IMG/VR virus record: IMGVR_UViG_3300020201_000009
Coordinates: 1 to 64,000 of that record
Source of the DNA: a virus
Reading direction: 5' to 3' (one strand)
Length of the DNA stretch: 64,000 nt
In this document: in pieces, positions 10,725 to 64,000 of the stretch
Layout of the letters: each line of letters opens with the position of its first letter
Position numbering within the stretch: position 1 is the first letter of the stretch
The notes under the pieces: model-generated
What the model was told of the DNA's origin: nothing
Database searches by the model: none
The model's input: the letters and a program-made list of their open reading frames with translations, nothing else
Program-made: the position numbers and the translations under genes

Positions 10725-11312
10725 ATGTTACAAAACTTTACATATGCTTTACCGCTACGTGATTACTCTGATCACGATCTTCTCCAGTTCTACTCTCTAA
10801 ATGGAACAGGCATGGGCGGTCTCTTCGTCATCGCAGAAACGGGTAATCAAAATCCGGTTCTCACCGCAGGACGCTATACCAATACCTCTGTAGGCGCTGC
10901 TTACGAAGGTACTACATCACTCCGTTACGAAAACCCACGCAAGGTTAGATTGGCTGGCTCTGGCGACAATCAATACAAGGTACTTGGCCTCATGCTATTT
11001 GGTACCGTTGAAACCGATGGAAACGGCCAAAGACTTATCCTCAACCCCAATCTTGCTAAAGAAATCGGTTGCGTGTATTCAGGTCAGACCACCCCTATCG
11101 CGTCTGCGGGTTATTTCCGTCTTCAGTTCGGCGCTTCAACTGGTATTCCAATTCCCGGCTTTGTCGGTATTATTCATAATACCCAACCCGGTAAGATTGC
11201 TTATGTCGATTCCGCGAACGTCTCTGACAAATCGCTAATCGTATGTAAGGTTCTCTCCAGCTCTGGTTCTGCTTTCGGTGGATATGCTGATGTTCAGCTA
11301 ACACTTGGCTAA
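10725..11312 (+). CDS. Capsid decoration/cement protein
   Basis: 195-aa Gly/beta-rich protein directly upstream of the major capsid gene; highly-expressed codon pattern (ttc, atc, ggt). Confidence 0.55.
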   Translation: MLQNFTYALPLRDYSDHDLLQFYSLNGTGMGGLFVIAETGNQNPVLTAGRYTNTSVGAAYEGTTSLRYENPRKVRLAGSGDNQYKVLGLMLFGTVETDGNGQRLILNPNLAKEIGCVYSGQTTPIASAGYFRLQFGASTGIPIPGFVGIIHNTQPGKIAYVDSANVSDKSLIVCKVLSSSGSAFGGYADVQLTLG

Positions 11313-11359
11313 TCATTAAGTACGGTTTATATAAAACTTAACTAAAAAGAAATTTAAAA

Positions 11360-12511
11360 ATGTCTAAATATCAGATCAATATCGAACAAGACGCAGATCT
11401 TTCAAAGCTAATCAAAGGTCTTGGCTCCAGAAATAGAGCTGAGTTCGATGCAGCGATGGAAGCTGTTGCGGCTTATATCGGTGAAGTTATTCTACAGGTT
11501 GTAGAACAATCTCCGGTTATCTCCAACCTTTACACGACCGTTACCTACAATGAAGGTTCCGCTCCCTCACTACCCCTCGATGTATACTATGACATCAAGG
11601 ATAAGAACTACCTCCAAGTTTGGACTCAGTCCATGCCCGGTGGTTTAGCCACTAACTTCGTTCACGGTTTGAACGAACTAATGGTTGCATGTTACGACAT
11701 CATGAGCGCGGTTTCTATGCACAAGCGCTATGCTCGCGAAGCACGTCTCGACGTTCTTGCCGCGACCATGGAACGTATGGCACAGGAAATCCTAGTTGTA
11801 CAGGAAACGAATGGTGCTAATATCCTATTCGCAGCTGTTGCTCAAGCTCGTTATAATGCAGTCGGCGGTGCTTCAACCCCACAGGTTATTCGTTCGGCTG
11901 TCGCTAACATTTTCCAGATGGACGATTTCAATCGTATCATCACTCTCCTACAGAGAATCCGCCCATCATGGGTCGGTGGAACGCCTGTTGGTGGTAACAC
12001 AATCTCACACCTCATTGGTTCACCTGAGTTCCATGAGCAGCTAAGATCAATCGCTTATCAACCTCAGAATACCCGCGCTGGTTCTTTGGCCACTAACGGT
12101 GCAACCGCTCTAGCGGCCCCTGATGCTGTTCGTGATAATATCTTCACTACCGCTGGTAATCCTAATTTCTTCGGCGTTGAATTGGTCAACGTCTTCGAAA
12201 TGGGTGTTGCTCAACCATACAATCAGTTGTTTGCTGATTACATCGGTGCTACAACCTTCCAAGGCTACGGTGGCGGCTCTAATGCTGTTTTCTCTCCTAC
12301 AACCGAAGAAGTTGTGCTAGCTCTATCTCTCAACTCGAACCGCAGAGCGCTAACCCGCCTTGTCGAACGTGGTGCGGAAAATGGCGCGACCTTAACTGTT
12401 CGCCCTGATGACTCATTCCCAATGAGAGCCGATAAGGTCGGTTTCTATGGTTCTCTTCGTGAAGGGCGCGTCAGTCTTGACAGCCGCCATTTGGCTGCAA
12501 TTGTATTCTAG
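11360..12511 (+). CDS. Major capsid protein
   Basis: 383 aa; follows protease/scaffold and decoration genes; highly-expressed codon pattern; followed by a strong terminator. Confidence 0.75.
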   Translation: MSKYQINIEQDADLSKLIKGLGSRNRAEFDAAMEAVAAYIGEVILQVVEQSPVISNLYTTVTYNEGSAPSLPLDVYYDIKDKNYLQVWTQSMPGGLATNFVHGLNELMVACYDIMSAVSMHKRYAREARLDVLAATMERMAQEILVVQETNGANILFAAVAQARYNAVGGASTPQVIRSAVANIFQMDDFNRIITLLQRIRPSWVGGTPVGGNTISHLIGSPEFHEQLRSIAYQPQNTRAGSLATNGATALAAPDAVRDNIFTTAGNPNFFGVELVNVFEMGVAQPYNQLFADYIGATTFQGYGGGSNAVFSPTTEEVVLALSLNSNRRALTRLVERGAENGATLTVRPDDSFPMRADKVGFYGSLREGRVSLDSRHLAAIVF

Positions 12512-12552
12512 TTCTTACTAAATAACAATTTGTAAAAGATTGTAACATTATT

Positions 12553-12583: not shown

Positions 12584-12629
12584 GTATTATATCCATGGCA
12601 CATAGCAACAATAACAGAATTTAAAATGA

Positions 12630-15806: not shown

Positions 15807-17693
15807 ATGGCGGATCTTCCTTTCAATCCTTTCTATAACGGGTATACGACAAGACAAAATATCTTAGCGTATGTCGATGGCCCCGATAATGTAGGGCAAG
15901 TTTTAACTTCTGGACAATTTTACTCTGGCCGTTGGGGAGGTTGGTATAGTATCGCGTCTCAATCATTTAAATATGCCAAAGCGTCGAACAACAGTTTTAA
16001 TCTTACGGTAAATAGCGACGGAACCAATTTTGGAAATCTAATACCGCCAGCGACATCGAACATTCTTCGTATATCAAATGTCGGAATGGCATTTGATGAA
16101 AACGCGAATCCTGTGATGTCATTTCAAGATAACGGAGATTCTAATGTGGGATTTTTTAACCCGCCTTTGGTTACGGTTGCTACAACCGGATTAAGTCTCC
16201 AGTTTTCGGGAAAAAATGCCGTCTTGTTTGCAACGGTTCAAACGAACTATCCTTATGGAATTCCAAATTTTCTATATAAAAGATATCAGACAGGCGACGT
16301 AGCTTGTTATTACAGTATTGAAAATGATAAAATTTATTCTAGATATAAAAGTGAAAATTTCGCCATTCAGCGCTTAATGTCTTCTGGCGTTCCCAATAGC
16401 GGAATGGCATTTGCAAATATTAATGTCTATCCATTTATCGATAGAACGAGTCAAGAATATCCGCCGTTTCGAAAAGTATACTCGTCGATTTCCGCCGATG
16501 GAAGAACTTTAAGACTAATACAGGGCGCTCCAACAATCAATTTTGCCGCTGATACATTCCAAAATTATCTTAGTGGAGAAGCGCCAGCGGTTTTGGTTTC
16601 GGGCTATGGAAGATGGATCGTTTCGACTTTATTGGGTGCCACAGTTGGGAGACAATTCACCGCGCAGCCTCGGGTGCAAGACGATTTTGAAGCGTATTCG
16701 TCCGGAGAAATAGCTAATTTAATCAGCGGATATCTCGTTTACCCTCAGATTACAGTTCCGACAACCGGGAGGGTATACGTGCAAGGCTTACTCATTGAAC
16801 CCTATACTGGTTATGCAACGGGGTATGATACTACTTTCGATAAAGGTTTTATAAATTTTAAAACGATTGTCGTCGCCACATCGGGGAGGTCTTATGACCC
16901 CGATTTATATTTCTTTGAGGGGTATGAAAATTATGCGTCGGGTTTAAGAAATACATTTCTTAGCTTCATCACTGGAAAACAATATAATGGTGTAAATGGA
17001 AGCGACGGGAGATCTTTTGCGGGATGGTCCCCATTGCAATTTTTAGGTATTCTTAGCGGGCTACAAAATCTGGGACTTGGACCCGCGCCTTTTACCGGAA
17101 GCGGGAGATTGAACATAGGAAATAACGATTTGATAACGAGAAATTATGTAGGATATCCCTATAAGGGAACCGGTATTTTCTTCAACAACAATGTATTTTC
17201 TTGGCAAAGACCTTTGGACCCCATTACCGATTTTACAGTTGAAATTGCCGCTTGGCCTAGTGGTTGGGCGACTTCAGATGCGAAAATTATTGAGGCAAAT
17301 CCTGTCGCTGGTTTTTCCTTGGGGAGATATTCCACAACCAATAATGTCGCGTTTATACTAAATAATGTAACTCACACGGGCACATTTTCACTAGGTTTAA
17401 ATGATTGGAATTTCTTATCGTTCTCTAGGAGTGGCGGCGTTGGTTCTCTCTATTGGAGCGGTAATCTTATGAATACTTTTCCAGTCAGCACGGGCGCTAT
17501 TACGGGCGGCGTTACGGTTAGTTTCGGTAAAAACTTTACCTCAAACAGTCAAAGATTTCTTGGATACCTCGACGAATTTAGATTCTGGGATACGGTCCGA
17601 ACCACCGGAGAGATTTATCGAGATTGGAATATTTTAATAAATCCACAACCTGATTTGATAGGCTATTTCTCGTTAAGAGACTACTCGTCTTAA
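15807..17693 (+). CDS. Tail-associated protein with C-terminal LamG/concanavalin-like domain
   Basis: DFTVEI...WNFLSFSR...FLGYLDEFRFWDTVRTTGEI...LIGYFSL matches LamG-3 hallmarks. Confidence 0.7.
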   Translation: MADLPFNPFYNGYTTRQNILAYVDGPDNVGQVLTSGQFYSGRWGGWYSIASQSFKYAKASNNSFNLTVNSDGTNFGNLIPPATSNILRISNVGMAFDENANPVMSFQDNGDSNVGFFNPPLVTVATTGLSLQFSGKNAVLFATVQTNYPYGIPNFLYKRYQTGDVACYYSIENDKIYSRYKSENFAIQRLMSSGVPNSGMAFANINVYPFIDRTSQEYPPFRKVYSSISADGRTLRLIQGAPTINFAADTFQNYLSGEAPAVLVSGYGRWIVSTLLGATVGRQFTAQPRVQDDFEAYSSGEIANLISGYLVYPQITVPTTGRVYVQGLLIEPYTGYATGYDTTFDKGFINFKTIVVATSGRSYDPDLYFFEGYENYASGLRNTFLSFITGKQYNGVNGSDGRSFAGWSPLQFLGILSGLQNLGLGPAPFTGSGRLNIGNNDLITRNYVGYPYKGTGIFFNNNVFSWQRPLDPITDFTVEIAAWPSGWATSDAKIIEANPVAGFSLGRYSTTNNVAFILNNVTHTGTFSLGLNDWNFLSFSRSGGVGSLYWSGNLMNTFPVSTGAITGGVTVSFGKNFTSNSQRFLGYLDEFRFWDTVRTTGEIYRDWNILINPQPDLIGYFSLRDYSS

Positions 17694-19410: not shown

Positions 19411-20523
19411 TTAGAGTTTTAAATAACCGATTAATCCCGCTGAATTAACGATAGAACCCGTTGCTCCAGAGGCAATTTCGTCTCGTGACCTCACGTAGTT
19501 CCAAATCCGAACTTCATCGATCCATCCCTGATATTGTTGAGAATTTCCATTAGTCATACGACGGCCAATAAAATAATCCCAATTGTTCAAAATCGTAAAA
19601 TTAATTTGTGGCCCCGAATTTCTTCTCATCCCGCTGATATAAAAAGTTCCGCTTATACCGCTTTTCACAAACGCAACGTGTGTCCATGATTGCTCGGAAA
19701 TTGAGACATCACAATTGAAGGCGCTTCCGGTAACACCAGCCCTAAGAAAGTCCGTGCTCGCGTTTCTACTTACAGTAAAACCAGATTGGCTATTGTGGTC
19801 GATCAATCTCGCATCAGCATCTCCCCAACCACTGCGTCTCATTTGGAATTCAACAGTAAAGTCATTGATAGCAGCCGGGTCTTTGTACAACTGTAAAAAA
19901 GTTCCGTTCCGCAAGAAAAGTCCCGATTCTTTATTATTATAACCAAGCCGAGTATTTCCTGCGCGATCCCATCCGCCAGTGAATATAAGACCCGACCCCG
20001 TGAATGTGGCTGGGGGCGATGCGCCGTGATTAACAAAACTTGTTCCCGTCACAATAAATACGGGGGGTATCCAACCCCAAATAGTCGTACCGGTTCCAAA
20101 ATAAGGCATTGGCCCCGATGCTGTCCAGCCCGAATAAAGTCCGGTGAAAATTAAACTATCCCCTGTAACAATAGGATATTTTCTCCAATCATCCATTATA
20201 AACGAGTAAGCATTAAACGCCTTTCCTGTTGTATATAAGGGAACGGGTAGAGGATTAAAAACGCCGCTATAGTCGGTCGTAAAACCAGTCAGAGCGCCAG
20301 ACGCATATTGGTCAAAAGGCTCTACGAAATATGAACTTGCTAAGAAACTGGTTCCCGTTGAAAATCCAGTTCGTGGAAGATTAAACCCATTTTCGTATAC
20401 GAATCCAGATTTATAAGTATCCCTAAAACCATCATTATATATATCAAAGGCTTCATATAAACCCGTATATACGAGTAAAGCAAGATCGCTTTGAGAAAAT
20501 AAAGTAAAAGGAAATGGGATCAT
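19411..20523 (-). CDS. LamG-domain tail/receptor-binding protein
   Basis: DFTVEF...WTHVAFVK...YQGWIDEVRIWNYVRSRDEI...LIGYLKL; directly after gpJ. Confidence 0.7.
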   Translation of the reverse strand: MIPFPFTLFSQSDLALLVYTGLYEAFDIYNDGFRDTYKSGFVYENGFNLPRTGFSTGTSFLASSYFVEPFDQYASGALTGFTTDYSGVFNPLPVPLYTTGKAFNAYSFIMDDWRKYPIVTGDSLIFTGLYSGWTASGPMPYFGTGTTIWGWIPPVFIVTGTSFVNHGASPPATFTGSGLIFTGGWDRAGNTRLGYNNKESGLFLRNGTFLQLYKDPAAINDFTVEFQMRRSGWGDADARLIDHNSQSGFTVSRNASTDFLRAGVTGSAFNCDVSISEQSWTHVAFVKSGISGTFYISGMRRNSGPQINFTILNNWDYFIGRRMTNGNSQQYQGWIDEVRIWNYVRSRDEIASGATGSIVNSAGLIGYLKL

Positions 20524-20524: not shown

Positions 20525-23500
20525 TTACTTAAAGTCTTTCGATAGGATGGCGCGGATTACAGTCCCATCATAAGCGCACGTAAGGGTATCCCTCGCTAGG
20601 GTATCGGGTGTTAAAGTTGGAATTGTTCCACCGGGAAACTTAAATACCGTATTATAAGTCAATGCCCGACCGCCACCCGCGTCTTGGTCTATGAACCAAA
20701 TATATGTTGCGCCAGCGGCTAGATTGGTTGGAGCACCTAATATTCGAGACCCACCTAGGGTAACTTGAAAAACATTTCCCGTTAAACAGTCTGTAGCGAT
20801 TGTCGCAGCGTCAACTAGGTTAATAATACCTTTATTGATATTCGCACGAGAGGTTGTCGGACTTGTGACTTCCCTTAAATTACCCGTGATAGTGAGTAGA
20901 TCCCCGCTGATCGTTATCGAATTAGATCCACGGAAAATCGAAAGACCGTGACCTGACCTTAAGATGTCGCCACTGATCGTAATCGTCTGCCCGTCTTGAG
21001 TATAATTTAAGAAACCCGTACTCTTTAATATAACCCCTGCTTCGATAAAAGGGTTATCATTCGAACGTATCCCAGTGACGCCAAGATTGGTTCGCATTAC
21101 AATCGGCCCATAGATAGGGCAACCGCTGACACCAAATGAGTCGATGATTGAATACCATAACTTGTACGCTCCCGTCATGCGATGGGTGATAAATCCCGCG
21201 ACGGATTGACTTTCACCGCTCTTATTTTGAAAAGTCGGAGTTAAATCGGGAACATCGTTGCTGTACCAAAAGTAAACCCCACTAATGTCTGTATCTCTGG
21301 GATCAGGGTCAATGTTATATTGAAACCCACCATTCGCACCATAAAAACCTGAATTTATAGGGGATCGCGGAGCGGGATTGGTAATATTGATTGCACCACC
21401 GACAATTGTAGAGCCGAAAATGTCGCTAGTTTCCACTTGAAACCTCCAAGTTCTCAAGCGCCCCCCGGTGAAATTATAAATAATTCCTGTAGGAATATCG
21501 AAGTGCGTAATACTTGGATCTTCAACAATGTAAGGTTGGGAAATTTGAGTCCCGCCAACGGTCATTGCAGTTAATCTATATGTATCTAAAAATTGAACCT
21601 TTGGATCAGGATTTCCATTTGTATCGTAAATAGTGTCCCATGAAATTCCGGGTTGAACACCGAAATAACCCGTTGTAATACCGGACGAGTTGGGTGAAAC
21701 TGTATTTGGATCTCCGTTAAAATAAACCGATAAACCAGTAACAACGGGAGGTCCGCCTACAGGATTTGTTGTAGGAACAACATAAAAACCAGAGACGAAT
21801 GTTGACTCCTTACCTCCGTAAGAGACTGCCCCTAGAAGGAAATTATGCCTTCCAGTTTTAATTACTGGATAAGTTGTATTTCGAGATTGGGGATTCGCAA
21901 AGTTAATCCAGTTCCCACCGTGAACTTGACCAGATACGCGATAATATGCTAAAACGGCGGAAGCAGAACCAGTCCAATTTAATTGTATGTAAGCGAAATA
22001 GTCGTTATTATTGAGCAACCCTGTAACTGGGGTAACACTAAAGTTAGATGGTGGAGTAATCGCCGTTCCATCCCCGGTATTCGCGGGTAAAGACTGAACT
22101 GAATATGAGCGTTCGATGGAATAGTTAATGCCAGTTGAGTATTCCAATCCTAAAATTTCAAGCGTTCCGGGTTTCCCCTCAGAAGTCGCCAAGCAACGAT
22201 ATAGAAGAGATTTGTCCGCGACGGTCGCGGCATCACCCGACGCCGAAATAATAAAGGTTGTCCCTTTATTTAACTCTATCCCGAAACCAGCATTCGCGGT
22301 AATCGTACTATAATTGCCGGGGGTGTTTAAAAGAAGTCTCGTTTGGATTTGAGAATTTCTAATCAAAGGAATTTGGGAAGACCCGGTAATCTGGTTCGGA
22401 TCATCTAAATTACCAGTAGGCGTGATACAAGAAAGATTATATGAAAAACCAGCGTCTAAAGTTATAGTTCTATCAAGGGTAATAGCTGTTTTATTAACAC
22501 TAAAATCGATAATTCTTCCACCCTGTTGTTTATTAAAACGATAGTTGTCATAAACGGAAAAAACATCGCCGGGACGAAGATAGTTTCCATATTGTCCGAC
22601 AGAGAATGTAATGGTTTCAGTAATTAACCGCTCCGTTTGGAGAATCCATGAACCCAAACGATAAGCTTGACCTTTAGATGTGCAAGCGAATGCGGTAACT
22701 TCCTTTTCAATATACCCATAGCGTAAAATACCCTCTTGATCTTCGATTCTTTCAATTGCTTCTCGATAAAGGTCTGAGGGATCAGTATATCGAACGATTA
22801 TAACAGTTGACCGAGTATTTTTGGCAGTATCGGCGTATTGAAAAGACCCATTTACAATATTGGCGTTTGTGTAATTATAAACTGGGCCTTTATCGGAATT
22901 TTGAGTGGCGAAAATCTTGCCATTCGCAAAATACATCATTCCACGAAATGCTGAAACTATATTTTGAAGTAAATCGTAGGCTTCGGTTCTTTGTTGTAGA
23001 GAACAATTTACGGTGTATCGAGGTTCTGATCCACCCTTTCCGTTATCAACCATTTCATCGCAATGCTGGGCGATTTCATATAGGCTCCATTTATCAACCC
23101 ATTGTGTCGCAACGTATTTTCCCAAACCGTATCGTTTATTGGTGATTAAATCATATAAAATCCAAGCGGGGTTATTGGTCCATTTTAAAGTCGAATCAAA
23201 GGTTCCATTCCAGACTGAAGGGTAAACGGCGGAAGTATAGGTTCCGTCAGAATTTATAACTGTTGGTGTATATCCTTGCGGAACCTGAATTTGCGCCCCA
23301 TCTAATTCGTATGCTCTTGAAGGGATAGCGGGAAATTGTTCTGCGTCTAGTATAGTGCCAACTAAAACAGACGTTGGGTAGCTGAGAGAACTAGAGGAGA
23401 TAACCGAAAGCGATTCAAAATATAATTCATTTTGGGTTTTAATAGATAAAATATTGTTTGTAGTTCGCCTAACTCTAACCCTCCAAGAAAGATTGCTTTG

Positions 23501-53396: not shown

Positions 53397-53507
53397 CAGT
53401 TTGCGTTAAAACTTTTTCGAAAAACCGAATCCATAAAAAAGTTTGCATCTAAAACATGTTGACTTTTGCCGCGTTTTAAGGGAAAATCCCTTTTAAGAAC
53501 AAATAAA

Positions 53508-54404
53508 ATGAAAATTTTCTCGGATGGGGCAGACTGCCCTCAGTGTCAAAGATGGAGAATCGAACGGGGTTTCAAGAAACTCGGCCATCAAATAGTTCTT
53601 GATATCAGTAAAGCCGATTTGATATATATTAATAATCCTTGGTATGATTCTATATATAAAGTTAATATATTAAAAAATAAAGTTAAAATCATTTTAAACA
53701 TTTTAGATTTGGCCCCGCATCTTGGAGATGATTTTCCACTAGAAAAGTTAAAGAAGTGTTTAAAAATGTCAGATGCTGTTACATGTATATCTGAAACAGT
53801 CAGAGACGATTGCACGGAAAGACTTAACATAACACCCCATGTTATTTACAATCCAATCATGGATGTTTTTTTACAAAAAAATCCCAAACCAAGAAAATTT
53901 AGAGCCCTTGCATCGGGAAGATTGCTTGACCCCAATAAGAGATCGCATTTGGGACTAATGGCATTGCAGGTACTCGGCGTAAAATCAGAAGAAATCGCAA
54001 TTTGCGGCTCAGAATATCCCGGATATGGAGAAAATTTGGGCATCGTAGGGGTAGACACTTTAAGAGAATTGTATAACGAAGTCGATTTTGTTTTGGTCAC
54101 TTCCCGACATGAGGGCTTGGGCTTACAGGTTCCCGAGGCGATGGCGGCGGGGGCTATCCCGGTTATATGTAATGATCTTTCTACGAAGCAGGAATTTTTA
54201 CCATCTATTTATTTTCCAGAGTACGACGAAGTTTACCCAAATGTAATATCTTTGGTTCATTTCATTTCTCGGTATATGGGTAGTCAAGAAAATATGTTGG
54301 ATTTCAAATCTAGGATTTATACCTATTACAATGCCAAATTGGCACATAAATTTAGTGATATCGGTGTTGCCAAATCAATTCTAGACATTTATTATAAACT
54401 ATAA
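53508..54404 (+). CDS. Glycosyltransferase, GT4-like (likely start ATG 53508 rather than TTG 53466)
   Basis: GRLLDPNKR, LRELYNEVDFVLVTSRHEGLGLQVPEAMAAGAIPV. Confidence 0.85.
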   Translation: MKIFSDGADCPQCQRWRIERGFKKLGHQIVLDISKADLIYINNPWYDSIYKVNILKNKVKIILNILDLAPHLGDDFPLEKLKKCLKMSDAVTCISETVRDDCTERLNITPHVIYNPIMDVFLQKNPKPRKFRALASGRLLDPNKRSHLGLMALQVLGVKSEEIAICGSEYPGYGENLGIVGVDTLRELYNEVDFVLVTSRHEGLGLQVPEAMAAGAIPVICNDLSTKQEFLPSIYFPEYDEVYPNVISLVHFISRYMGSQENMLDFKSRIYTYYNAKLAHKFSDIGVAKSILDIYYKL

Positions 54405-54405
54405 C

Positions 54406-55224
54406 ATGACAGCCGATTACATTTCCTCGTTAGTTAGTATCGTAATCTTAGACTATAAGAGACCGTTCGAAGCAGAGCTTCTTTTAGCCAGTCTTAAAAA
54501 ACATGCGCATTTTCCTTACGAACTCGTTTATGTAAGCAACGGGGGGGACCAAGGTTATGTACAAGAATTTTACAACCAAGGATTAATTGATATTTTAGTT
54601 CTTTCCAAAGAAAACGGCGGGACCGGGCTAGGTACTAGGTTGGGATTTAAAGCCGCATCTGGCGCATACGTAATGTATTTACAAGTTGACCAATGGTTAG
54701 GATCAGATATTTCGTCATTCGAAATCTCAGATATGGTAAATTTCCTCGTGCACCACCCAGAATGCTTCTATATCGATCTGGCTGGTAATCAGGGTCATGG
54801 CAATTACTCCGAAAGAGCGGGATTTCTAAATAGGGAGCGATATTTAAATATTCCAGAATTGGGAAAAGCATACGGAGGACCCGGTCCTTTCGCCCATATT
54901 CAATGGTCCGAAAATGGTGTTCAAGAGCATATTAAAAAGAATAATCTTAACATCGTCATTGGTCCCAAAGTTTTCGGAGACAATGGTAAAAATTCCGTTA
55001 GAGAATATCCTTGCGGTGGAATTTTAATGTTATCGACTGACGAAAAAAGACTAACTATTATTAAACAAATCAAAAAAAGGGCAGATTTTCCAAATTTGAA
55101 ATTAACAGACGCCGAGTGGGAACTAATTTTAGATGAAAAATGGATTGATGGTACAATTCCAGAGGGTCACAGGGATAGCAGTTTTGTTGCATGGAAAAAC
55201 GTGATTACGATTGCAAATTTGTAA
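54406..55224 (+). CDS. Glycosyltransferase, GT2/GT-A-like
   Basis: VSIVILDYKR, ELVYVSNG, ENGGTGLGTRLGFKAASGAYVMYLQVD. Confidence 0.75.
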   Translation: MTADYISSLVSIVILDYKRPFEAELLLASLKKHAHFPYELVYVSNGGDQGYVQEFYNQGLIDILVLSKENGGTGLGTRLGFKAASGAYVMYLQVDQWLGSDISSFEISDMVNFLVHHPECFYIDLAGNQGHGNYSERAGFLNRERYLNIPELGKAYGGPGPFAHIQWSENGVQEHIKKNNLNIVIGPKVFGDNGKNSVREYPCGGILMLSTDEKRLTIIKQIKKRADFPNLKLTDAEWELILDEKWIDGTIPEGHRDSSFVAWKNVITIANL

Positions 55225-55997
55225 TGATGAAAATTTCAATCTACAGCTCTGCTTGGTCGGCCAAAAAGATGGGATTCGATCTTAAAGGCGCGTTAGATAA
55301 TTGGTCTAAGTACGCCGATGAAATTATTATTGCGGTCAATAAATGCAATGAAACGTTTTTAGAAATCGCCGAATTGGAAAATCCAAAGGTAAGTATCGTC
55401 ATGACCGATATCGATTTTGAAAAAGACCCATTTGCATATGGTAAAGTCATTGATTCCGCGCTTCAATTTACATCGGGGGATTTACTTATTCAACAGGACT
55501 TAGACGAACGTTTCCGGGTAGATCCAGAAATGTTGCCGAAAATTTATAAGAGATTGAAGGATAATTTTTTTGGATCTTGTTTCGTACCTACAATTGACCT
55601 TTATGGAGATACCGAATCTTATGTTAATATTGGGAAAAAATGGTATATTCATTTACCGGGATTTCATCGTGGCCCTGTTAAATTTGGTATTAAGTCCGAT
55701 AATCACCCTGATTACAATAAGACCAGCACGGATGAGCTAATTGATAAAGACGGTAATCTTGTTCCGACATTAAATCTTTTTGATGGCAATATTAATGATC
55801 TTCAAAAATATGTTGAAAGAGGAATGCCTATTGTCTACCATCTTGGGTATTTGAACCTCATAGACAGGGCTGAACGCGCTAAGTGGTGGAAAGATTTTTG
55901 GGTTAGAGCTACAAATGGGGACTCTAATACACATATTACAGATGTCAAAGAATTACTGAAGAGAGAAACGAAAAAACATGGATTGCCGCTATGGTAA
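55224..55997 (+). CDS. Glycosyltransferase, GT2/GT-A-like (likely start 55224, TAATG overlap)
   Basis: MKISIY...ADEIIIAVN...ALQFTSGDLLIQQDLDE (DxD)...YHLGY. Confidence 0.75.
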   Translation: MMKISIYSSAWSAKKMGFDLKGALDNWSKYADEIIIAVNKCNETFLEIAELENPKVSIVMTDIDFEKDPFAYGKVIDSALQFTSGDLLIQQDLDERFRVDPEMLPKIYKRLKDNFFGSCFVPTIDLYGDTESYVNIGKKWYIHLPGFHRGPVKFGIKSDNHPDYNKTSTDELIDKDGNLVPTLNLFDGNINDLQKYVERGMPIVYHLGYLNLIDRAERAKWWKDFWVRATNGDSNTHITDVKELLKRETKKHGLPLW

Positions 55998-56031
55998 ATC
56001 ACCGAAAATTTGAGGCGGAAAACAAAAAAAT

Positions 56032-56892
56032 ATGAATAAAATTTTTATAGGTATAATTACCCAAAATGAAAAATCTAATATTGAAGATCTTACGGCCTAT
56101 TATCGATATTTCGACGGGCTTGCGTCAGTTGATCATGGAAGCGACGATGGTACGTATGAAATTCTAGACGAAAGAAAGGGTGTGGGTTTTGTAGAAAAAA
56201 TTCCTTATTACGGGCATCATGGTCATTCCATGAACCATTTCCTTTTAAATCCAAAAATCGGCATTGGAGATTGGATACTTTTAAGGGATTCCAACGAAAG
56301 AATCAACGAGGATTTTGCCAAAAATATTCGCGGCTTTTTGAGTCAAATGGAAAATAACGGCATTGGCTCAATTTATCAATATAGCAAGTTGTTATTATTT
56401 AAAAGATTTCCCAATCAATTTTTTGCGAACACTCCTCATTGGGGATTACAAAACGCTCAACCAAAACATATTCAAATAGACCAACAGAATTGGTTTTCGT
56501 CCGATGAGAAATATTGTTATAGTGTGAGAAACAAAAATAGAGACTGTTGGCATTTTGTTGGAGCGTATCTTCGCTACTATCTCATGAAAGATAGTAATCA
56601 TTGTTTGCTTGGTTTAGAAAAAAATGGAGACCCAAATATCTTGTTTCCCATTAGAAATAACCGTCGGATTAGATTTCTTCTCGCGCTTGAAGAATATAGT
56701 ATTCCAGCAAGTAAAGACGCAGTAATTGATGTTGCTGGCCATTTATATAAATATCCTAATTTAACAATATTTTTTAATGAAGAAAAAATTTTAAATGACG
56801 CATATCGTTATCATATTCTAGGCGATAGACAATTCAAAGATAATCACGATTTTAAAGATATGGTAGAGATTAAGTCAACTACCCCGCCCTAA
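56032..56892 (+). CDS. Glycosyltransferase, GT2-like; last 5 codons derive from the inserted IS end
   Basis: IITQNE, VDHGSDDGTYEIL, DWILLRDSNE. Confidence 0.7.
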   Translation: MNKIFIGIITQNEKSNIEDLTAYYRYFDGLASVDHGSDDGTYEILDERKGVGFVEKIPYYGHHGHSMNHFLLNPKIGIGDWILLRDSNERINEDFAKNIRGFLSQMENNGIGSIYQYSKLLLFKRFPNQFFANTPHWGLQNAQPKHIQIDQQNWFSSDEKYCYSVRNKNRDCWHFVGAYLRYYLMKDSNHCLLGLEKNGDPNILFPIRNNRRIRFLLALEEYSIPASKDAVIDVAGHLYKYPNLTIFFNEEKILNDAYRYHILGDRQFKDNHDFKDMVEIKSTTPP

Positions 56893-58668: not shown

Positions 58669-59454
58669 ATGCAAATACCCATTACAATCTGTTTATTTAC
58701 AACCACAAAAGGTCATTGGGGTACTAAAGATCGCTACAAGGAAACGATTAATTGGTTGGACAACAAAATTCCCTTACGTTATTTTTCGGGTCTAGTGGCA
58801 AATATAAAAGTTTCCCCCGAAGACGAGGGAACGCCGCACCATGTAGAGATGTTGAGGTTTTTGACTTCGAAAGGGTTTTCAATCCATCAGGATATTTATT
58901 CTTGGGCTCATGGTGCAGAATCTCACCAGAAGGGTTACATAAACGATATGCGGAAAGTATATAACAATCCTAAGGTTTTAAAAACGCCCTATGTACTTCA
59001 CCTTGAAGACGATTGGAAAATTAATTCTTTAGACGGCGAATTAATCGATTGGATTCGTATAGCGTTGAGTGTTCTAGATGAAGACCCGGAAATTTTACAA
59101 GTTCGCTTTGCTAGATTTTCCGACGAATATGATAGAATTCTAGGTTTGAAAGCCAAACATAATATTGACGGGAAGGTTAAGATTTTGACCGATAATATTT
59201 TTGCTTCCAACGACCTTAGCTTAAACCCGTCTATCTTTAGAGGGAGGGATTTAAAGAACGCTTTGATTCTTTATCTTCGTAACCTTCCAAATCTTCCCTT
59301 ACATGTTGAAATGGGTTTTTCAATTGCTCTTAAATACTTTAGTGAGAGCGCCACCCCCTTTGCGGTATTAAATCCTGAAAAAGTAAAGGCCGCTCATATT
59401 GGTAGCCCCCTTGGGGGCGAGGACGACCCTTTAATACTTAAGAAAGCCGATTAA
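58669..59454 (+). CDS. Glycosyltransferase-like protein (GT-A)
   Basis: ITICLFTT, TPYVLHLEDDW, LSLNPSIFR, HIG. Confidence 0.65.
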   Translation: MQIPITICLFTTTKGHWGTKDRYKETINWLDNKIPLRYFSGLVANIKVSPEDEGTPHHVEMLRFLTSKGFSIHQDIYSWAHGAESHQKGYINDMRKVYNNPKVLKTPYVLHLEDDWKINSLDGELIDWIRIALSVLDEDPEILQVRFARFSDEYDRILGLKAKHNIDGKVKILTDNIFASNDLSLNPSIFRGRDLKNALILYLRNLPNLPLHVEMGFSIALKYFSESATPFAVLNPEKVKAAHIGSPLGGEDDPLILKKAD

Positions 59455-59524: not shown

Positions 59525-60502
59525 TTATTCGGTATCTATAGAATCTTCGCCGCGACTTTCGAAATACTGGATAATCTCCTTTCTTAAACGCCAATTCCTT
59601 TCTGTCAATGTATATAAACCAGTGACATCTTTCTTAAGGTCTAATTCTGGGTTAAATTGATTTTCAACTAAGATTGACCATCTATCTCTATACCCCCTAT
59701 TAGCTTTCTTTCCGTGCCAATGATGGGTTATCAAACCCGGTAAGTAACCGATATTTCTATGAATATAATGACGGCAACGAACTTGCCAAATTTTTAAATA
59801 TTTAATATAAACTGGGTGGACTTTTGGATGAACACTAAATTGCACTTTATCTACTAACGCATAACACATATGACGATCTGCACTACCTAACACTGCCCAA
59901 TCTATTAATCCGCCCACCTTTTCTAAAGCGTCTCTACGTGCCGCCCAACAATAACCGGGATGCCAAGAACCAGCCGCATATTTTTTGTAGTCCCACTCCA
60001 TTTTCATATTATCATACCACGCTTTACAAAAACTCATTTGTGGTTTTTTATCAATCGGCTCTCCATTTGGACCCAAATCTTGCGCATGTGACCATGGCTG
60101 AATAAAGTCATGCAATTGTAACTTTTGTACGGTTTCTTCCGCCCAATCAGGTCTTTGAAAAACAATATCGGCGTCGCACCAGCAAATATATCTAGCTTCC
60201 TTTGGAAGACGTTGAATCATAAGATTTAAGAGATTTTCTTTTGACCAAATCACATTTCCCTTACGATCCTCGCCGCCAGTTCGAATTTGTAAATGGAAAG
60301 GATTATCAGAATTAGTAATAACAAAAGATCTTTCTCCATAAGCAAGTTCTACTGTCCAAAGTATAGCCCCCGCATCTTTAATTCTTTTAGCAAATTCTGC
60401 ATATAGCTCATAACGAGAGTTATAGTTAATAGGATTACTTATTGCAGTAACCACATGAAGCTTGTTTGCCCATCCTTCTAATCCATCAAATAGCGTTTTC
60501 AT
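59525..60502 (-). CDS. Glycosyltransferase-like protein (GT-A), lone antisense gene with late-type promoter
   Basis: WSKENLLN...YICWCDADIVF (DxD), GSAD, HHWHG; GTGTA at 60530-60526. Confidence 0.65.
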   Translation of the reverse strand: MKTLFDGLEGWANKLHVVTAISNPINYNSRYELYAEFAKRIKDAGAILWTVELAYGERSFVITNSDNPFHLQIRTGGEDRKGNVIWSKENLLNLMIQRLPKEARYICWCDADIVFQRPDWAEETVQKLQLHDFIQPWSHAQDLGPNGEPIDKKPQMSFCKAWYDNMKMEWDYKKYAAGSWHPGYCWAARRDALEKVGGLIDWAVLGSADRHMCYALVDKVQFSVHPKVHPVYIKYLKIWQVRCRHYIHRNIGYLPGLITHHWHGKKANRGYRDRWSILVENQFNPELDLKKDVTGLYTLTERNWRLRKEIIQYFESRGEDSIDTE

Positions 60503-61101: not shown

Positions 61102-61340
61102 TGGCGAAAAGTCTTGAGTTTTGTCTCATTCTAGAGACAATCGACGAAGGGTCAAAAAATAATTATTGGACGGAATTCTCGAATCTATACCGAGAGGGCC
61201 AATGGGAAGTCGTTTCTTTTTATGGTGTAAAAGCAAAAGCCAAATTAGTACACGACACAAAACCAACAGTGTTTATTAAAATATCCGATGATTTTCTATT
61301 TTTTAAAATAATAAATGGCGTTAAACAATTCGTGGCCTAA
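61101..61340 (+). CDS. Small hypothetical protein
   Basis: TAATG coupling to the upstream gene. Confidence 0.45.
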   Translation: MAKSLEFCLILETIDEGSKNNYWTEFSNLYREGQWEVVSFYGVKAKAKLVHDTKPTVFIKISDDFLFFKIINGVKQFVA

Positions 61341-62535
61341 ATTTAATTGGCCTTTAGGTATTTCCACAATGACGTGGAAAGACAAGTTAAAAATTAGTAA
61401 ATTTCTATTTACAGAGCCCCAATGGACAGCGGGTAAGTGGGTTGAATACTACGAGAATCTTTGGAAGGAAAGTACGAAGGCTCCATATGTAGTAATGACT
61501 TCGAGTGGTTCTTCAGCGAATCAATTAATTGCCCTTCGCCGGAAATGGGAGTTGAAACACTCGAACGAGAAGCACGGCAATAAAGTCCTTTTCCCGGTAG
61601 TCAACTGGATTAGCTCAGTTTCCCCCTTTGTACATGCGGGTTTTGATCCCGTTTTTGTTGATGTAGGACACAATCTTTGCGCAACGGTATCTGATATTGA
61701 AGATAAACTAATTTCCGATCCTCAGATTAAAACAGTTTTTTACACAACCCTTTTGGGTTTTGCATGTAATCTCGCTCATTTACAGAGAGTCTGTTTAAAA
61801 CATGGGGTCAAACTTTTACTCGATAACTGTGAATCGTCTTTTTCATATTTTGATGCAGGGGGGTCTACGTCTACATACTTTAAATCTTTTAATAATTTTG
61901 TCACTTGTTCGACTAGTATTTATATTTCCCATTTTACTAGCGGTGGCAATGAGGGGGGGTTAATATTCTGCCAAAATGAAGAAGAATATGAGTGGTACAA
62001 GATGGCCCGTAACCATGGCATGACTAGAAATATGCCTAAAAAATACCATAATCTAGATGCGAATGAAATGTTCGACTTCTATCTTATGGGGACAAATACG
62101 CGATCTTCAAATCTTCTGGCCTATATGGCTTCTTTGGATTTTGAGAGATCATCCAAGTTTTCTTGCGAACAAAGGAAAAATATAGAAATAGCATTTTCTT
62201 ACGCTCTAGATCATAACAAATACGATATGCCACATTATTACAATGAGCAATCGTCGAAATATTCGCCACTTGCTATTCCAATTATTAAAAATAAAAAATG
62301 CAAGGATGAATCTTTAATCGCAAAAGTGCAGTTTTTTTTAAAAGTTTGCGATGTTGCATATCGTCCAATTGTTGGCGGAAATCTTTTACGGCACACAGCT
62401 TTTAAAGAGTATGGAAACGCACGGTATTTTCCCAATGCTGAGTGGATTCATAACCAAGGTTTATATATTGGTCTCCATCAAGGCGTAACAATTAAAATGG
62501 CGGAAAATCTAGCAAACCGCCTATCAGCATTATAA
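61315..62535 (+). CDS. DegT/DnrJ/EryC1-family PLP enzyme, ColD/E1-like sugar dehydratase
   Basis: SSGSSAN, PVFVDV, LLDNCES, SIYISHFTSGGNEGG (His at the Schiff-base Lys position), RNHG, RPIVGGNLLRH. Confidence 0.8.
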   Translation: MALNNSWPKFNWPLGISTMTWKDKLKISKFLFTEPQWTAGKWVEYYENLWKESTKAPYVVMTSSGSSANQLIALRRKWELKHSNEKHGNKVLFPVVNWISSVSPFVHAGFDPVFVDVGHNLCATVSDIEDKLISDPQIKTVFYTTLLGFACNLAHLQRVCLKHGVKLLLDNCESSFSYFDAGGSTSTYFKSFNNFVTCSTSIYISHFTSGGNEGGLIFCQNEEEYEWYKMARNHGMTRNMPKKYHNLDANEMFDFYLMGTNTRSSNLLAYMASLDFERSSKFSCEQRKNIEIAFSYALDHNKYDMPHYYNEQSSKYSPLAIPIIKNKKCKDESLIAKVQFFLKVCDVAYRPIVGGNLLRHTAFKEYGNARYFPNAEWIHNQGLYIGLHQGVTIKMAENLANRLSAL

Positions 62536-62536
62536 G

Positions 62537-63532
62537 ATGAAAATTGCTTATATTGATTTGGGGGTAAACCGCCCAAGAGAAAGTTATGCCTTAAATCCTA
62601 AAAGATACGGCGGCGGGGCTTGTTTTGCCAGATATGCAAAAATCGAATTAAACACATCGAATGATCTCTTCGATATCCACGCCCCTATTGAATCTTTTAA
62701 TGAATTGGGTGAAGACGAAGGTAGGAGTGGCTGCTTTGGGCTAACTGAAGCAGAAATGTCGGCGATGAGAAATGGCGAAAATATTAGAGGGTATATCAAA
62801 GATGCTGAAAAATATGATATATTTGTATATCATCACGATTGTCTCGCAATTAATGCTTCCGGGTTAAGTGGAAAATTAGTGTCGTGGTCTTTAATGGGAG
62901 ATAACGGGGCGCAACACCCTTCCACTCCGTATGTATTACTTTATCGACCCGGCGAGCAGGCAAGATACGGAAAAGGTTTTCCGGTCACTATTGGTAAATT
63001 TGTTCCGAGTTGTTTTACTTATCCTTCTCTGAAAACAGAAAGTTTGTTCCAATGCTCTAGACACGATGTCCATATGAACACAATAGAGGTTGCTAAATTT
63101 TGTTTAGCTAACAAAAATATTAGCGGCATTTTCGCGGGTCCCATCCTTGATAACTATCCACTAATAGATTATATTAATAATAAGGATACCGTTTATCTTG
63201 GGTTGATTTCCGAAATAGATAAATTAGATTATTGTAAACAGGCCATCGCCACGACATATCTTCATACATGGGATACGGCCTTTAACCTCAGTGCAATCGA
63301 ATCTTTATCTGTCGGCACACCAATCATTGCAGCAAAGCGAGGTTGTTTTGAATATATCATTGAGGAGGGTGTAAATGGATATTTTTGGCAATCTGGAGAC
63401 GATCTTTCTGCTTTGGTTGAAAAATGCAAGAGACTAGACCCTTTGAAGGTCTGGGAAACAGCGCATAGATTTTCTCATAAGGCTATGGTTCGTAGTTTTC
63501 ACAAAGCATTCCAAGAAATTTTATCATTATGA
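62537..63532 (+). CDS. Glycosyltransferase, GT4-like
   Basis: YGGG, YLGLISEIDK, WDTAFNLSAIESLSVGTPIIA...IIEEGVNGY. Confidence 0.8.
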   Translation: MKIAYIDLGVNRPRESYALNPKRYGGGACFARYAKIELNTSNDLFDIHAPIESFNELGEDEGRSGCFGLTEAEMSAMRNGENIRGYIKDAEKYDIFVYHHDCLAINASGLSGKLVSWSLMGDNGAQHPSTPYVLLYRPGEQARYGKGFPVTIGKFVPSCFTYPSLKTESLFQCSRHDVHMNTIEVAKFCLANKNISGIFAGPILDNYPLIDYINNKDTVYLGLISEIDKLDYCKQAIATTYLHTWDTAFNLSAIESLSVGTPIIAAKRGCFEYIIEEGVNGYFWQSGDDLSALVEKCKRLDPLKVWETAHRFSHKAMVRSFHKAFQEILSL

Positions 63533-64000
63533 AAACACAAGAATACCAGAAGTTTAGCATGAAAATTGAACATATTACAGTTTGTGTTAACTATCTGGAT
63601 TTCTTAAGGGTAGCCTATTTACATAATACGCTGGCCGAAGCTTTTGATCACTATATTGTAGTCTCTGACTATAAAGATAAGGCAACCGAAGATTTTTGCA
63701 AACAACACTCAATTACGTTAGTAAGGACAAATCATTTTTATGATCGAGGGGCTGTTTTTAACAAGGGTCTCGCGATTAACGAGGGTTTTAAAGTATTAAA
63801 ATATAGGGATTGGGTGTGCCATATGGATGCCGATACATTTGTTCATAGGAATTTTAGGAAAGATATTGAATTATATCCATTAAACAAAGATTGGTTCTAC
63901 GGAACAGAAAGGGTACTATTAAAAACACCACAAGATCTTTTTTTATATCGTCGCGGAATAGCCGATGAAAGTTTTGAGATCCCGGAAGGGTTCGGTTATG
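63529..64000 (+). CDS. Glycosyltransferase-like protein (GT-A), truncated by the window end; not in the ORF track
   Basis: ATGA overlap with the previous stop; reads MKTQEYQKFSMKIEHITVCVNYLDFL...FNKGLAINEG...WVCHMDAD. Confidence 0.7.
   Translation, partial: MKTQEYQKFSMKIEHITVCVNYLDFLRVAYLHNTLAEAFDHYIVVSDYKDKATEDFCKQHSITLVRTNHFYDRGAVFNKGLAINEGFKVLKYRDWVCHMDADTFVHRNFRKDIELYPLNKDWFYGTERVLLKTPQDLFLYRRGIADESFEIPEGFGY

Follow-up and report, generated by a model that had tools for sequence, protein, structure and literature searches.

An uncultured phage (IMG/VR record IMGVR_UViG_3300020201_000009; 146-kb genome, 191 ORFs scanned) places serine or threonine before glycine far more often than expected in proteins of its distal virion, and this excess of [ST]G is a real, selected and lineage-specific sequence habit. 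Our best explanation, to which we give a little less than an even chance, is that [ST]G is a structural turn motif specific to the clade's distal virion proteins. The window analysed here (positions 1 to 64,000 of the record, 64,000 nt; Table 1) also encodes a set of glycosyltransferases (GTs), and an earlier note on this DNA had read the motif as an O-glycosylation acceptor.

Table 1. Coordinates and assignments of the features discussed
Feature	Position	Strand	Remarks
Major capsid protein	11360..12511	+	By position and conserved 370-385-aa orthologs
LamG protein B	15807..17693	+	628 aa, paralog of A; Laminin_G_3 at residues 473-603
Protein B repeats	16548..17045	+	Residues 248-413; four tandem ~41-aa copies
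LamG protein A	19411..20523	-	370 aa; directly after gpJ; Laminin_G_3 67.3 bits
LamG/ConA-like domain, protein A	19471..19881	-	Residues 215-351; Pfam; AlphaFold pLDDT 62-91
Protein A repeats	20215..20460	-	Residues 22-103; two clear ~40-aa copies, weaker third after
gpJ-like central tail fibre, C-half	20525..22312	-	Residues 601-1195; phrog_31 E 5e-173
Tail-module protein, 284 aa	40309..41163	-	Borderline [ST]G enrichment
Candidate neighbour protein, 311 aa	44021..44956	-	Adjoins large GT in three genomes
Double GT-B enzyme, 1014 aa	45071..48115	-	GT1/GT4-like and GT9-like, DUF4214 between; Pfam, PHROG 2170
Glycosyltransferase, 358 aa	49767..50843	-	phrog_2170 E 6e-12, phrog_4356
Plus-strand GT block	53466..56892	+	GT4-like 53466-54404; weak GT2-like 54406-55224; ORF 55191-55997; GT2_4 56032-56892
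Two ORFs once called GTs	58669..59454; 59525..60502	+; -	No Pfam, NCBIfam or PHROG match
DegT/DnrJ/EryC1-family sugar aminotransferase	61315..62535	+	Pfam E 3e-33
GT1/GT4-like and GT2/Fringe-like ORFs	62537..64000	+	62537-63532; 63529-64242, ending beyond window

The [ST]G excess in virion proteins, relatives and controls

The [ST]G count of each protein was compared with expectation by composition-preserving shuffles and binomial P values, with multiple-test correction over the 191 ORFs. Across the full 146-kb genome, two LamG proteins, A and B, are the sole strong outliers (z 8 and 6, respectively, against the shuffles). The earlier note had put about 27 [ST]G in protein A, and that count is exact: 27 among 43 glycines, where 7.9 are expected (P 1.7e-10; 3e-8 corrected for 191 ORFs). 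Protein B has 28 among 66 glycines against 11.2 expected (P 1e-6), and aligns with A at 28% identity (E 4e-29) with many [ST]G sites in register. Orthologs of protein A (P0151, P0002, P0152, P0006) have the same bias, with an observed/expected ratio (O/E) of 2.6-3.7. Because the shuffles hold composition constant and the excess persists, amino-acid composition, which the note had named as a cause that might explain the enrichment away, cannot account for it. The claim that other tail proteins are enriched held when they were pooled (O/E 1.78, z 5.0), a z score inflated by their having been chosen by eye in that note, but is weak for each one singly: P 0.0065 for the protein at 40309 (8 [ST]G against 3.1 expected; not significant once corrected), 0.07 for 38134, 0.12 for 39303 and 0.05 for the whole of gpJ. 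Within gpJ, the C-half has 25 [ST]G against 14.4 expected (z 3.2) and the N-half has z -1.3; gpJ of relative L010 reaches z 5.6.

Core and lattice proteins are slightly depleted (O/E 0.83), and non-structural genes stand at 1.19. For the major capsid protein, which has no family match in Pfam or PHROG, the note's figures were right: 30 glycines, none after S or T. By itself this depletion has P 0.018, which fails correction over 191 tests. Capsid orthologs in L009, L012 and G006 have 0, 2 and 1 [ST]G against about 4 expected each; for the two distant orthologs that lay outside the note's material, the count is 3 against 7.9 expected (P 0.045). Across the clade, the capsid protein has 3 against 15.5 expected.

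The bias extends to relatives, where 15 proteins from about nine unrelated families have S or T before 53% of their glycines. In these proteins, O/E is 3.09 for SG and 2.60 for TG, and 0.3-0.8 for every other residue before glycine. The most extreme proteins are those of the distant relative G006 (z up to 18), in which the hexamers around [ST]G are nearly all unique. In some relatives, the bias lies inside fibre repeat units (NLSGNLxSTGQQ, YPRxNPSG), and the enriched proteins of G003 and L012 are overtly repetitive. No bias is found in the T4 long tail fibres (gp34-38, z 0.1-0.8), in lambda J (z -0.5) or Stf, or in a GT-free 147-kb phage, and the choline-binding repeats of the Cpl-1 lysin reach merely z 1.6. 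The negative results for lambda J and Stf, T4 gp34-38 and the choline-binding repeats indicate that generic fibre architecture is not the cause. Choline-/cell-wall-binding repeats (PF01473) were also sought directly in G000, G006, G004, G003 and G002, with no match at E <= 1.

Turn glycines and the residue before them

Proteins A and B both pass the gathering cut-off of 27.6 bits for Laminin_G_3 (PF13385), a ConA-like lectin domain that occurs in virion proteins of phages and in giant surface proteins (67.3 and 40.8 bits, respectively). AlphaFold models support a jelly-roll beta-sandwich (pLDDT 62-91 for residues 200-350 of A and 56-93 for residues 460-620 of B) and superpose with the family, turn glycines in place. 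Foldseek searches with the LamG models return pentraxins, LamG domains and carbohydrate-binding modules (E 1e-10 to 1e-7). The N-terminal halves consist of ~40-aa tandem repeats with [ST]G at fixed positions, opening with [DE]-x-[FY]-[DE]-x-Y-x-[ST]-G. Self-alignment of protein A scores 4 SD above shuffles, with repeat HMM domains at residues 22-61 and 66-103; in protein B the motif recurs at residues 249, 292, 331 and 371 (HMM domains 248-284, 291-331, 330-371 and 369-413). This repeat has no family match in Pfam and is an undescribed module.

In a family alignment of seven sequences (27-64% identity), the hydroxyl residue before glycine is kept by purifying selection, and S and T can stand in for each other. 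S39-G40, T52-G53 and S177-G178 are invariant, S or T precedes retained glycine in 95 of 112 cases, and [ST]G counts in the orthologs hold at 23-27 despite divergence. At the sites, S/T is encoded by nine different codons and Gly by four, and this diversity indicates that selection works on the protein. In both AlphaFold models, the [ST]G of the LamG domain lie at two-residue hairpin loops or strand ends; protein A has seven such sites at or beside beta-hairpin turns. Of 1,070 ordinary LamG_3 domains, 96% retain G298 and 56% retain G289, which makes the turn glycines part of the fold. The glycines of [ST]G have a structural role in turns, and the pair with the highest conservation forms canonical LamG hairpin turns.

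The preceding residue departs from the family. At the G298 turn, 1,023 ordinary domains have N in 49% and D in 49%, with S/T near 0, whereas protein A bears S at the canonical [ND]G turns of both G289 and G298. In the A/B family, the canonical Asn/Asp-Gly hairpin ahead of the late strands has S or T in place of N/D in six of seven members, with the glycine retained. Correspondingly, [ND]G O/E is 1.6-2.0 in ordinary LamG_3 proteins and 0.2-0.9 in the A/B family. For [ST]G, the median O/E of 149 ordinary LamG_3 proteins is 1.2 (1.2-1.3) against 2.5-3.7 in the family, and the LamG fold alone is therefore not the cause of the excess. The earlier note had also named beta-turn preference as a possible trivial cause. 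That holds in part, since the sites are on beta-turns; with S/T standing where the fold has N/D, turn preference accounts for the glycine and not for the hydroxyl residue.

How might a turn motif produce such a pattern? In beta-hairpins capped by Asx- or ST-turns, a small polar residue precedes the turn glycine; S, T, N and D are interchangeable caps, and ordinary proteins prefer N or D. We suggest that distal virion proteins of this clade are built from short beta-strands linked by tight hydrophobic-[S/T]-Gly-hydrophobic/aromatic turns, in which the S/T hydroxyl would act as an ST-turn-type side-chain cap in place of the Asn or Asp of ordinary LamG domains. Indeed, in 49% of sites S/T follows I, L, F or V, aromatics are favoured after the glycine, and in several enriched proteins [ST]G recurs every 3-8 residues with periodic lags, fitting arrays of short strands. 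The repeat regions, which hold most of the sites, are poorly modelled (pLDDT <30, including residues 1-199 of protein A), so the turn geometry there is one that we infer. Proteins A and B would be glycan-binding adhesins with a repeat stalk and a LamG lectin head, probably mounted at the tail tip after gpJ or encoded at the end of the head operon. Against a structural motif, only the glycine is accounted for, and the replacement of N/D by S/T is left unexplained. The same switch has occurred in about nine unrelated families of the clade, which points to a clade-wide selective agent, and the T4, lambda and Cpl-1 controls do not reproduce it. Unlike ordinary capped hairpins, these proteins have near-exclusive S/T, at 53-67% of glycines in many unrelated proteins and in no control. 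A purely structural motif would still define an undescribed ~40-aa repeat module; it would also amount to the rewriting of a canonical LamG turn across the lineage, and that rewriting calls for a physical explanation.

Glycosyltransferases and sugar genes

The earlier note had listed ten GTs in this region. Family matches back those at 45071, 49767, 53466, 54406 (weakly), 56032, 62537 and 63529, and do not back those at 55191, 58669 and 59525. The DegT aminotransferase at 61315 likewise has a family match, although this protein scores under all NCBIfam equivalog cut-offs. The genome encodes Gmd, an SDR and this aminotransferase, and the gene content supports a predicted GDP-6-deoxy-aminosugar pathway alongside the GTs.

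The 1014-aa enzyme lies directly upstream of the tail operon and the 358-aa GT is likewise upstream, both co-oriented with it; adjacency to tail genes recurs in G006 and G007. Homologs of the large enzyme in these two relatives (37-42% identity) are split into two ORFs, and homologs of the 311-aa protein, found by BLAST, adjoin them in each. The 311-aa protein has no family match in Pfam or PHROG. The GT9 domain of the large enzyme (PF01075, 34.4 bits against a cut-off of 22, residues 618-776) weakly matches heptosyltransferases: its single PDB match is the WaaF-type 1psw (E 0.002), and its NCBIfam matches, LPS heptosyltransferases I-III, are all far under cut-off. A tblastn search with the whole enzyme gave no match at 1e-8 in 50,697 cultured phage records, mycobacteriophages included. 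The 358-aa GT has a full-length homolog in G006 (38% identity); for this GT, the large enzyme and Gmd taken together, identity to the G006 counterparts is 33-42%. Most of the GTs on the plus strand (53466-64242) have no conserved counterpart in that genome, and the search there found no homologs of the block at 53466-56892.

All of the GT and sugar enzymes are soluble. A hydropathy scan of the 191 ORFs predicted no protein with more than three membrane segments, and the 146 kb contain no candidate Wzx, Wzy, WaaL, Gtr or initiating transferase. No enzyme is close enough to any known protein O-glycosyltransferase for its acceptor to be assigned. If [ST]G is a turn motif, these genes would be a separate feature, acting on virion protein at other sites, on the host envelope or, less likely, on DNA. 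Several GTs in one genome do recall phage DNA glycosylation of the T4 hmC or MT/TET/GT type (bioRxiv 10.1101/2023.12.21.572611). However, no ThyA-like hydroxymethylase (PF00303) was found here in a search whose control worked, and a scan of 20 larger ORFs from 65 to 103 kb revealed no DNA-modification genes. ThyX is present.

Alternative explanations for the motif and the enzymes

During infection the enzymes may serve to remodel the host envelope, at a surface glycan of LPS-core or other type, which could block superinfection, for instance, or keep progeny from sticking to debris. Such a role would leave them unrelated to [ST]G, and we regard it as possible though on balance improbable. GT9, GT4 and GT2 enzymes with Gmd and DegT are what LPS and O-antigen loci usually contain, and the best matches, weak as they are, lead to LPS heptosyltransferases and to GT4s of the LPS or exopolysaccharide type. 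The variability of the plus-strand GTs is as expected of host-specific accessory genes. The missing flippase, polymerase, ligase and initiating transferase candidates count against this role, but core-type assembly on lipid A requires peripheral enzymes only and is therefore compatible with a genome that has no such membrane proteins. In addition, no match attains a curated cut-off, the two conserved GTs sit beside tail genes rather than in a moron-like island, and the host may have no LPS. An envelope role for the enzymes is compatible with the structural turn explanation.

To our knowledge, phage virion glycosylation has been proven in only a few mycobacteriophages, without an acceptor motif readable from sequence, and we know of no [ST]G O-glycosylation sequon in bacteria or phages. 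Such a sequon is nevertheless what the earlier note proposed. In the fuller form weighed here, [ST]G in exposed turns would be the acceptor for the phage's soluble GTs, and distal tail adhesins would be hyperglycosylated in the cytoplasm, ahead of virion assembly, with GDP-6-deoxy or amino sugars that the phage makes itself; the motif would be avoided in lattice proteins. From sequence, we judge this rather unlikely. It is similarly doubtful that, in this clade of large, uncultured siphoviruses, the conserved double GT-B/GT9 enzyme, the second GT, Gmd, the aminotransferase and variable accessory GTs form a self-contained, membrane-free kit for a hydrophobic-[S/T]-Gly sequon, and no less doubtful that this sequon was selected into at least nine unrelated virion families, overwriting the Asn/Asp-Gly of LamG, and out of the capsid lattice. 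Several lines of evidence fit. The excess is confined to the two hydroxyl residues, which swap at fixed sites and displace the LamG fold's canonical N/D, and the bias spans unrelated distal families but spares the core and the capsid. The large GT, the 358-aa GT and Gmd are conserved in G006, the home of the most extreme proteins; the large GT adjoins tail genes in three genomes; the enzymes are all soluble, in a genome without a polytopic membrane protein; and every GT-free control is negative. Yet the positive genomes come from a single clade, apart from G003, where the case is repeat-driven, so that co-occurrence of GTs and bias is not phylogenetically independent, and the large proteins beside the GT in G007 are not enriched (z 0.3-0.4). 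Glycans at some 27 positions of a 370-aa chain, many of them just 3-5 residues from the next, would also be an extreme load for a folded beta-protein.

Known systems offer partial parallels. In mycobacteriophages, the tail tube is reportedly among the targets, with a C-terminal location. Phage GTs of Che8 and its relatives are proposed or proven to add virion glycans, and the capsid is targeted (Freeman et al. 2023, cited in PMC11256854). Soluble phage GTs near structural genes are common to both cases, whereas the capsid that is the target there lacks the motif here; the search of the phage records with the 1014-aa enzyme gave no match. The GT9-family cytoplasmic BAHT enzymes TibC and AAH place many sugars on serines of the beta-rich, repetitive adhesins TibA and AIDA-I, including turn serines in the case of TibC, and one of two mapped TibC sites, Ser-313, precedes glycine (PMC4358343). 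The large phage enzyme also has a GT9 domain, but one that weakly resembles LPS heptosyltransferases and is not closer to TibC/AAH (no TibC structure came up in the PDB search). Moreover, TibC modifies Ser only, the paper defines no sequon (PMC4358343), and the phage encodes GDP-sugar enzymes. PBCV-1 encodes GMD and GMER, which supply the fucose and rhamnose of its capsid glycans; these N-linked glycans occupy non-canonical sites that share no motif (PMC4691112). In gene content, giant viruses (PBCV-1 Vp54, mimivirus fibres) share GMD with an SDR, an aminosugar pathway, soluble GTs and the lack of a membrane pathway, but they are viruses of eukaryotic hosts.

What would follow if [ST]G were an acceptor? 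First, this would be the first sequon-defined phage protein O-glycosylation system, legible from sequence alone. Second, metagenomes could be used to predict which phage proteins are glycosylated. Third, a minimal turn sequon and its enzymes could serve glycoengineering. Fourth, a glycan coat on the tail adhesins would matter both for how the phage recognizes its host and for how the immune system recognizes therapeutic phages.

Chemical stability is a far weaker candidate, and we think it very unlikely. Asn-Gly deamidates fast and Asp-Gly forms isoaspartate, a lability that is established protein chemistry, so exposed, long-lived virion proteins might shun both turns and keep the turn-compatible S and T. 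The loss of canonical [ND]G turns from the A/B family agrees with this, as does an NG O/E that is lower in the virion module (0.86) than in non-structural genes (1.23). However, among residues before glycine in the 15 enriched proteins, the depletion of N (0.68) and D (0.67) does not exceed that of E, I, V or A (0.56-0.79), so the signal is a gain of S/T and not a specific loss of N/D. The capsid protein keeps three NG among its 30 glycines, and the equally exposed T4 fibres favour [ND]G (z 1.6-2.0).

Finally, that no selection is involved, and that the excess merely follows from composition, from low-complexity repeats or from a motif at the nucleotide level, is largely refuted and has hardly any probability left: the repetitive proteins of G003 and L012 do count one ancestral unit repeatedly, and the N-terminal halves of A and B are also repeats, but shuffling preserves composition, site codons are diverse, the G006 hexamers and the steady ortholog counts do not fit, and nine sites in the non-repetitive C-terminal part of protein A (LamG domain and tail) are conserved at 27-64% identity.

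Distribution of the [ST]G excess

The [ST]G excess in this genome is strongest in two LamG proteins, A and B. Counts were compared with composition-preserving shuffles for 54 window ORFs and then for 191 whole-genome ORFs, and A and B are the only strong outliers among the 191. For protein A, the earlier note's count is exact: 27 [ST]G among 43 Gly, with 7.9 expected (z ~8, binomial P 1.7e-10). Protein B has 28, with 11.2 expected (P 1e-6). Gly is preceded by S or T in 63% of cases in protein A, 42% in protein B and 15% elsewhere. The same note had named the gpJ C-half and the proteins at 40309, 38134 and 39303 as rich in the motif; these are enriched when pooled, but are weak singly (P 0.0065 to 0.12). 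Pooled observed/expected ratios (O/E) run from 2.87 for the LamG pair (z 9.6), through 1.78 for the other named proteins (gpJ C-half, 40309, 38134 and 39303; z 5.0), 1.41 for unnamed head/tail accessory ORFs (z 2.3) and 1.19 for non-structural genes at 64-146 kb (z 2.7), to 0.83 for the core/lattice set (portal-region proteins, capsid, tape measure, M/L/K/I and the gpJ N-half; z -1.7). A gradient across protein sets exists, although the named set was picked by eye. The capsid protein, exactly as noted before, has 30 Gly and no [ST]G. By itself, this depletion is lost after multiple-testing correction; two distant capsid orthologs, outside the earlier data, have 3 [ST]G versus 7.9 expected (P 0.045).

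The bias recurs in relatives of the phage. The close relative L009 has the same pattern, and in L010 and L012 gpJ, fibre proteins and others are also enriched. In G006, a 107-kb relative that shares 34 genes and whose capsid protein is 37% identical, seven proteins reach z 5-18 and have S/T before 38-67% of their Gly. In all, 15 proteins (10,927 aa) are enriched, and by BLAST they group into about nine unrelated families; pooled, S/T precedes 685 of 1,301 Gly, with O/E of 3.09 for SG, 2.60 for TG and 0.3-0.8 for all other X-G (N 0.68, D 0.67). At 49% of sites I, L, F or V comes just before the S/T, and the position after the Gly favours aromatics. Proteins of some relatives are overt fibre repeats, and spacing is periodic in several proteins. 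A 766-aa distal-tail protein of G006 (L023, 44164-46464, minus strand) has 5 [ST]G versus 11.8 expected (z -2.4). Depletion here, with adjacent proteins on either side reaching z 7 and z 10, shows that the bias acts selectively inside a single tail tip.

Several explanations were rejected. First, the LamG fold is ruled out as the cause, with a median [ST]G O/E of 1.2 in 149 ordinary LamG_3 proteins. Second, a generic fibre property is ruled out by negative results for lambda J and Stf, T4 gp34-38 and the whole genomes of G002, a complete GT-free phage, and its relative G005. Third, codon diversity at the sites (nine codons for S/T, all four for Gly) rules out a nucleotide-level motif. Fourth, an HMM of the ~40-aa repeat module of proteins A and B matches the LamG family alone, so the enriched families have no shared hidden unit. 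Fifth, the analogy of the [ST]G-aromatic pattern to choline-binding repeats finds no PF01473 match, and Cpl-1 reaches z 1.6. G003, a jumbo phage that is unrelated and has a single GT1, is set apart as a different case because low-complexity solenoid repeats make up its enriched proteins.

The LamG family and the residue before the turn glycine

Proteins A and B are paralogs (28% identity, E 4e-29) with many [ST]G sites in register, and both have a C-terminal Laminin_G_3 domain. The protein A gene directly follows gpJ, the position that side-fibre genes occupy in lambda. The N-terminal parts of both proteins are degenerate ~40-aa tandem repeats opening [DE]-x-[FY]-[DE]-x-Y-x-[ST]-G, with four clean units in protein B (residues 248-413) and two or three in protein A; a family search with this module gave no match. 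AlphaFold is confident over the LamG domains only, and the repeat regions (A residues 1-199, B 1-456), modeled with 7- and 9-row alignments, have pLDDT below 30-45. The LamG-domain models superpose on pentraxins, LamG domains and carbohydrate-binding modules. Mapping [ST]G on these models, as had been suggested, places the sites at predicted two-residue hairpin loops or strand ends.

The LamG family is small, consisting of four orthologs of protein A (P0151, P0002, P0152 and P0006) and the B lineage. All members have 19-27 [ST]G sites, several of them invariant across 27-64% identity. Where the Gly is kept, the preceding residue is S/T in 95 of 112 cases, with S and T swapping freely. For ordinary domains, 1,070 LamG_3 domains from 149 homologs were aligned to the family HMM. 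At their G298 turn, Gly is present in 96% and is preceded by N in 49%, by D in 49% and almost never by S/T; at the G289 turn, D precedes in 55%. The phage family has S or T at both turns. The conservation of turn Gly in ordinary domains indicates that the glycines are the fold's own turns. [ND]G O/E is 1.6-2.0 in ordinary LamG_3 proteins versus 0.2-0.9 in the phage family, and [ST]G O/E is 1.2-1.3 versus 2.5-3.7. The peculiarity of the family is the switch from N/D to S/T before the turn Gly.

Sugar enzymes and the meaning of the motif

Ten glycosyltransferases (GTs) had been listed in the window. Family assignments support seven (45071, 49767, 53466, 54406 weakly, 56032, 62537 and 63529) and fail for 55191, 58669 and 59525. 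The 45071 protein combines a GT1/GT4-like domain, DUF4214 and a GT9-like domain. DegT at 61315 is confirmed; with Gmd and an SDR epimerase/reductase, both encoded outside the window, it forms a predicted GDP-6-deoxy-aminosugar route. Every match falls short of the curated cut-offs, which leaves the enzymes' acceptors unassignable. Neither a polytopic membrane protein nor a ThyA-like hydroxymethylase was found in the genome. Conserved in G006 are 45071, 49767, Gmd and 44021, the 311-aa neighbour of the large GT. The large GT and 44021 adjoin tail genes both there and in G007, a further relative, and the large proteins adjoining the large GT in G007 have no [ST]G enrichment.

What could the motif be for? 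The leading reading, held tentatively and at somewhat less than even odds, is that [ST]G is a structural turn motif whose link to the enzymes is unproven. Structure explains the glycines, the conservation of site positions, the repeats and the placement at hairpins. Left unexplained are the exclusive use of S/T, its reappearance across unrelated families within a single clade and its absence from structural controls. The hydroxyl is selected by something clade-specific. That this selecting agent is a clade-specific enzyme, making [ST]G a candidate glycan acceptor, is conceivable but doubtful. There is precedent in soluble virus-encoded glycosylation kits (PMC4691112) and in a repetitive adhesin whose turn serines are loaded by a GT9-family enzyme (PMC4358343). 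Against the acceptor reading, the co-occurrence of the bias with GTs is not independent, the enzymes have no homology to any protein O-glycosyltransferase, and the proteins would have to bear an extreme load of glycans. Moreover, we know of no [ST]G sequon. A literature search for phage O-glycosylation sites returned nothing relevant, and the available portion of the Jabs preprint text does not mention glycans. Chemical stability, with labile NG and DG being avoided, is improbable as the driver: it is consistent with the N/D to S/T switch in LamG, but it does not fit the finding that every other X-G is equally depleted, and three NG are kept in the capsid protein. That the [ST]G excess is an artefact is very improbable indeed.

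Genome setting and neighboring genes

The genome is a 145,870-bp IMG/VR viral contig, ~92% complete (CheckV), whose first 64 kb form the window; it is of siphovirus type and has no cultured relative. The plus strand carries the head genes (~3.4 to 17.7 kb) and the minus strand the tail genes (running from 44.9 to 17.8 kb), with a tape measure of 2,841 aa and lambda-like tail-tip genes. No cultured phage was found with the large GT, the major capsid protein or the LamG protein. Relatives in IMG/VR number only three; P0006 and P0152 are carried on contigs of 80-125 kb. Among cellular genomes, Gmd has a single match (51% identity), on the 2.6-kb scaffold JBAYJB010000035.1 (L036), which is binned in a groundwater Paceibacterota MAG. 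This scaffold may be mis-binned phage DNA, or may hint at habitat or host.

Features of the genome discussed in the text
Feature	Position	Strand	Size
Terminase-like protein	3375-6578	+	1,067 aa
Capsid protein	11360-12511	+	
LAGLIDADG homing endonuclease	12630-13487	+	
Putative diverged tail-gene paralog	14619-15803	+	
LamG protein B	15807-17693	+	628 aa
LamG protein A	19411-20523	-	370 aa
Tail-tip genes (M, L, K, I, J matches)	20525-27214		
Tail-module gene	38134-39231	-	
Large GT	45071-48115	-	1,014 aa
Holin-like protein	51381-51671	-	96 aa
Inter-block region	52110-53465		~1.35 kb
GTG-start ORF	52967-53218	-	83 aa
TnpB/IS605 OrfB-like gene	56924-58114	-	
SDR epimerase/reductase (outside window)	70398-71372		
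Gmd (outside window)	73362-74378		
ThyX-matching protein (L014 10597-11619)	74597-75619		340 aa

The double GT corresponds to two adjacent ORFs in G006 (35755-38943, 650+410 aa) and in G007 (9490-12587, 636+395 aa). Upstream, the minus-strand block bearing the two conserved GTs ends with the holin-like gene, whose product has three predicted membrane segments. The region between the minus- and plus-strand blocks holds the GTG-start ORF as its sole ORF of at least 80 aa. Within the plus-strand GT block, the TnpB/IS605 OrfB-like gene lies antisense, with a Cas12f1-like TNB domain (E 2e-15). The ThyX-matching protein, encoded next to Gmd, is longer than usual ThyX, and its match is partial and weak (E 6e-10, profile positions 61-189).

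Among head genes, the terminase-like protein has Bacillus phage matches at 20-25% identity only; its N-terminal part matches features annotated terminase or helicase, and its C-terminal part matches terminases. The G006 homolog is only 634 aa, and the window protein may have arisen by fusion or contain an insertion. The homing endonuclease gene separates the capsid gene from the head genes downstream, and L009 has in the same place a 315-aa counterpart with only a faint LAGLIDADG_3 match. The product of 14619-15803 matches the same 369-aa G006 protein (24% identity) as that of 38134-39231 (40% identity), and so looks like a diverged paralog of this tail-module gene.
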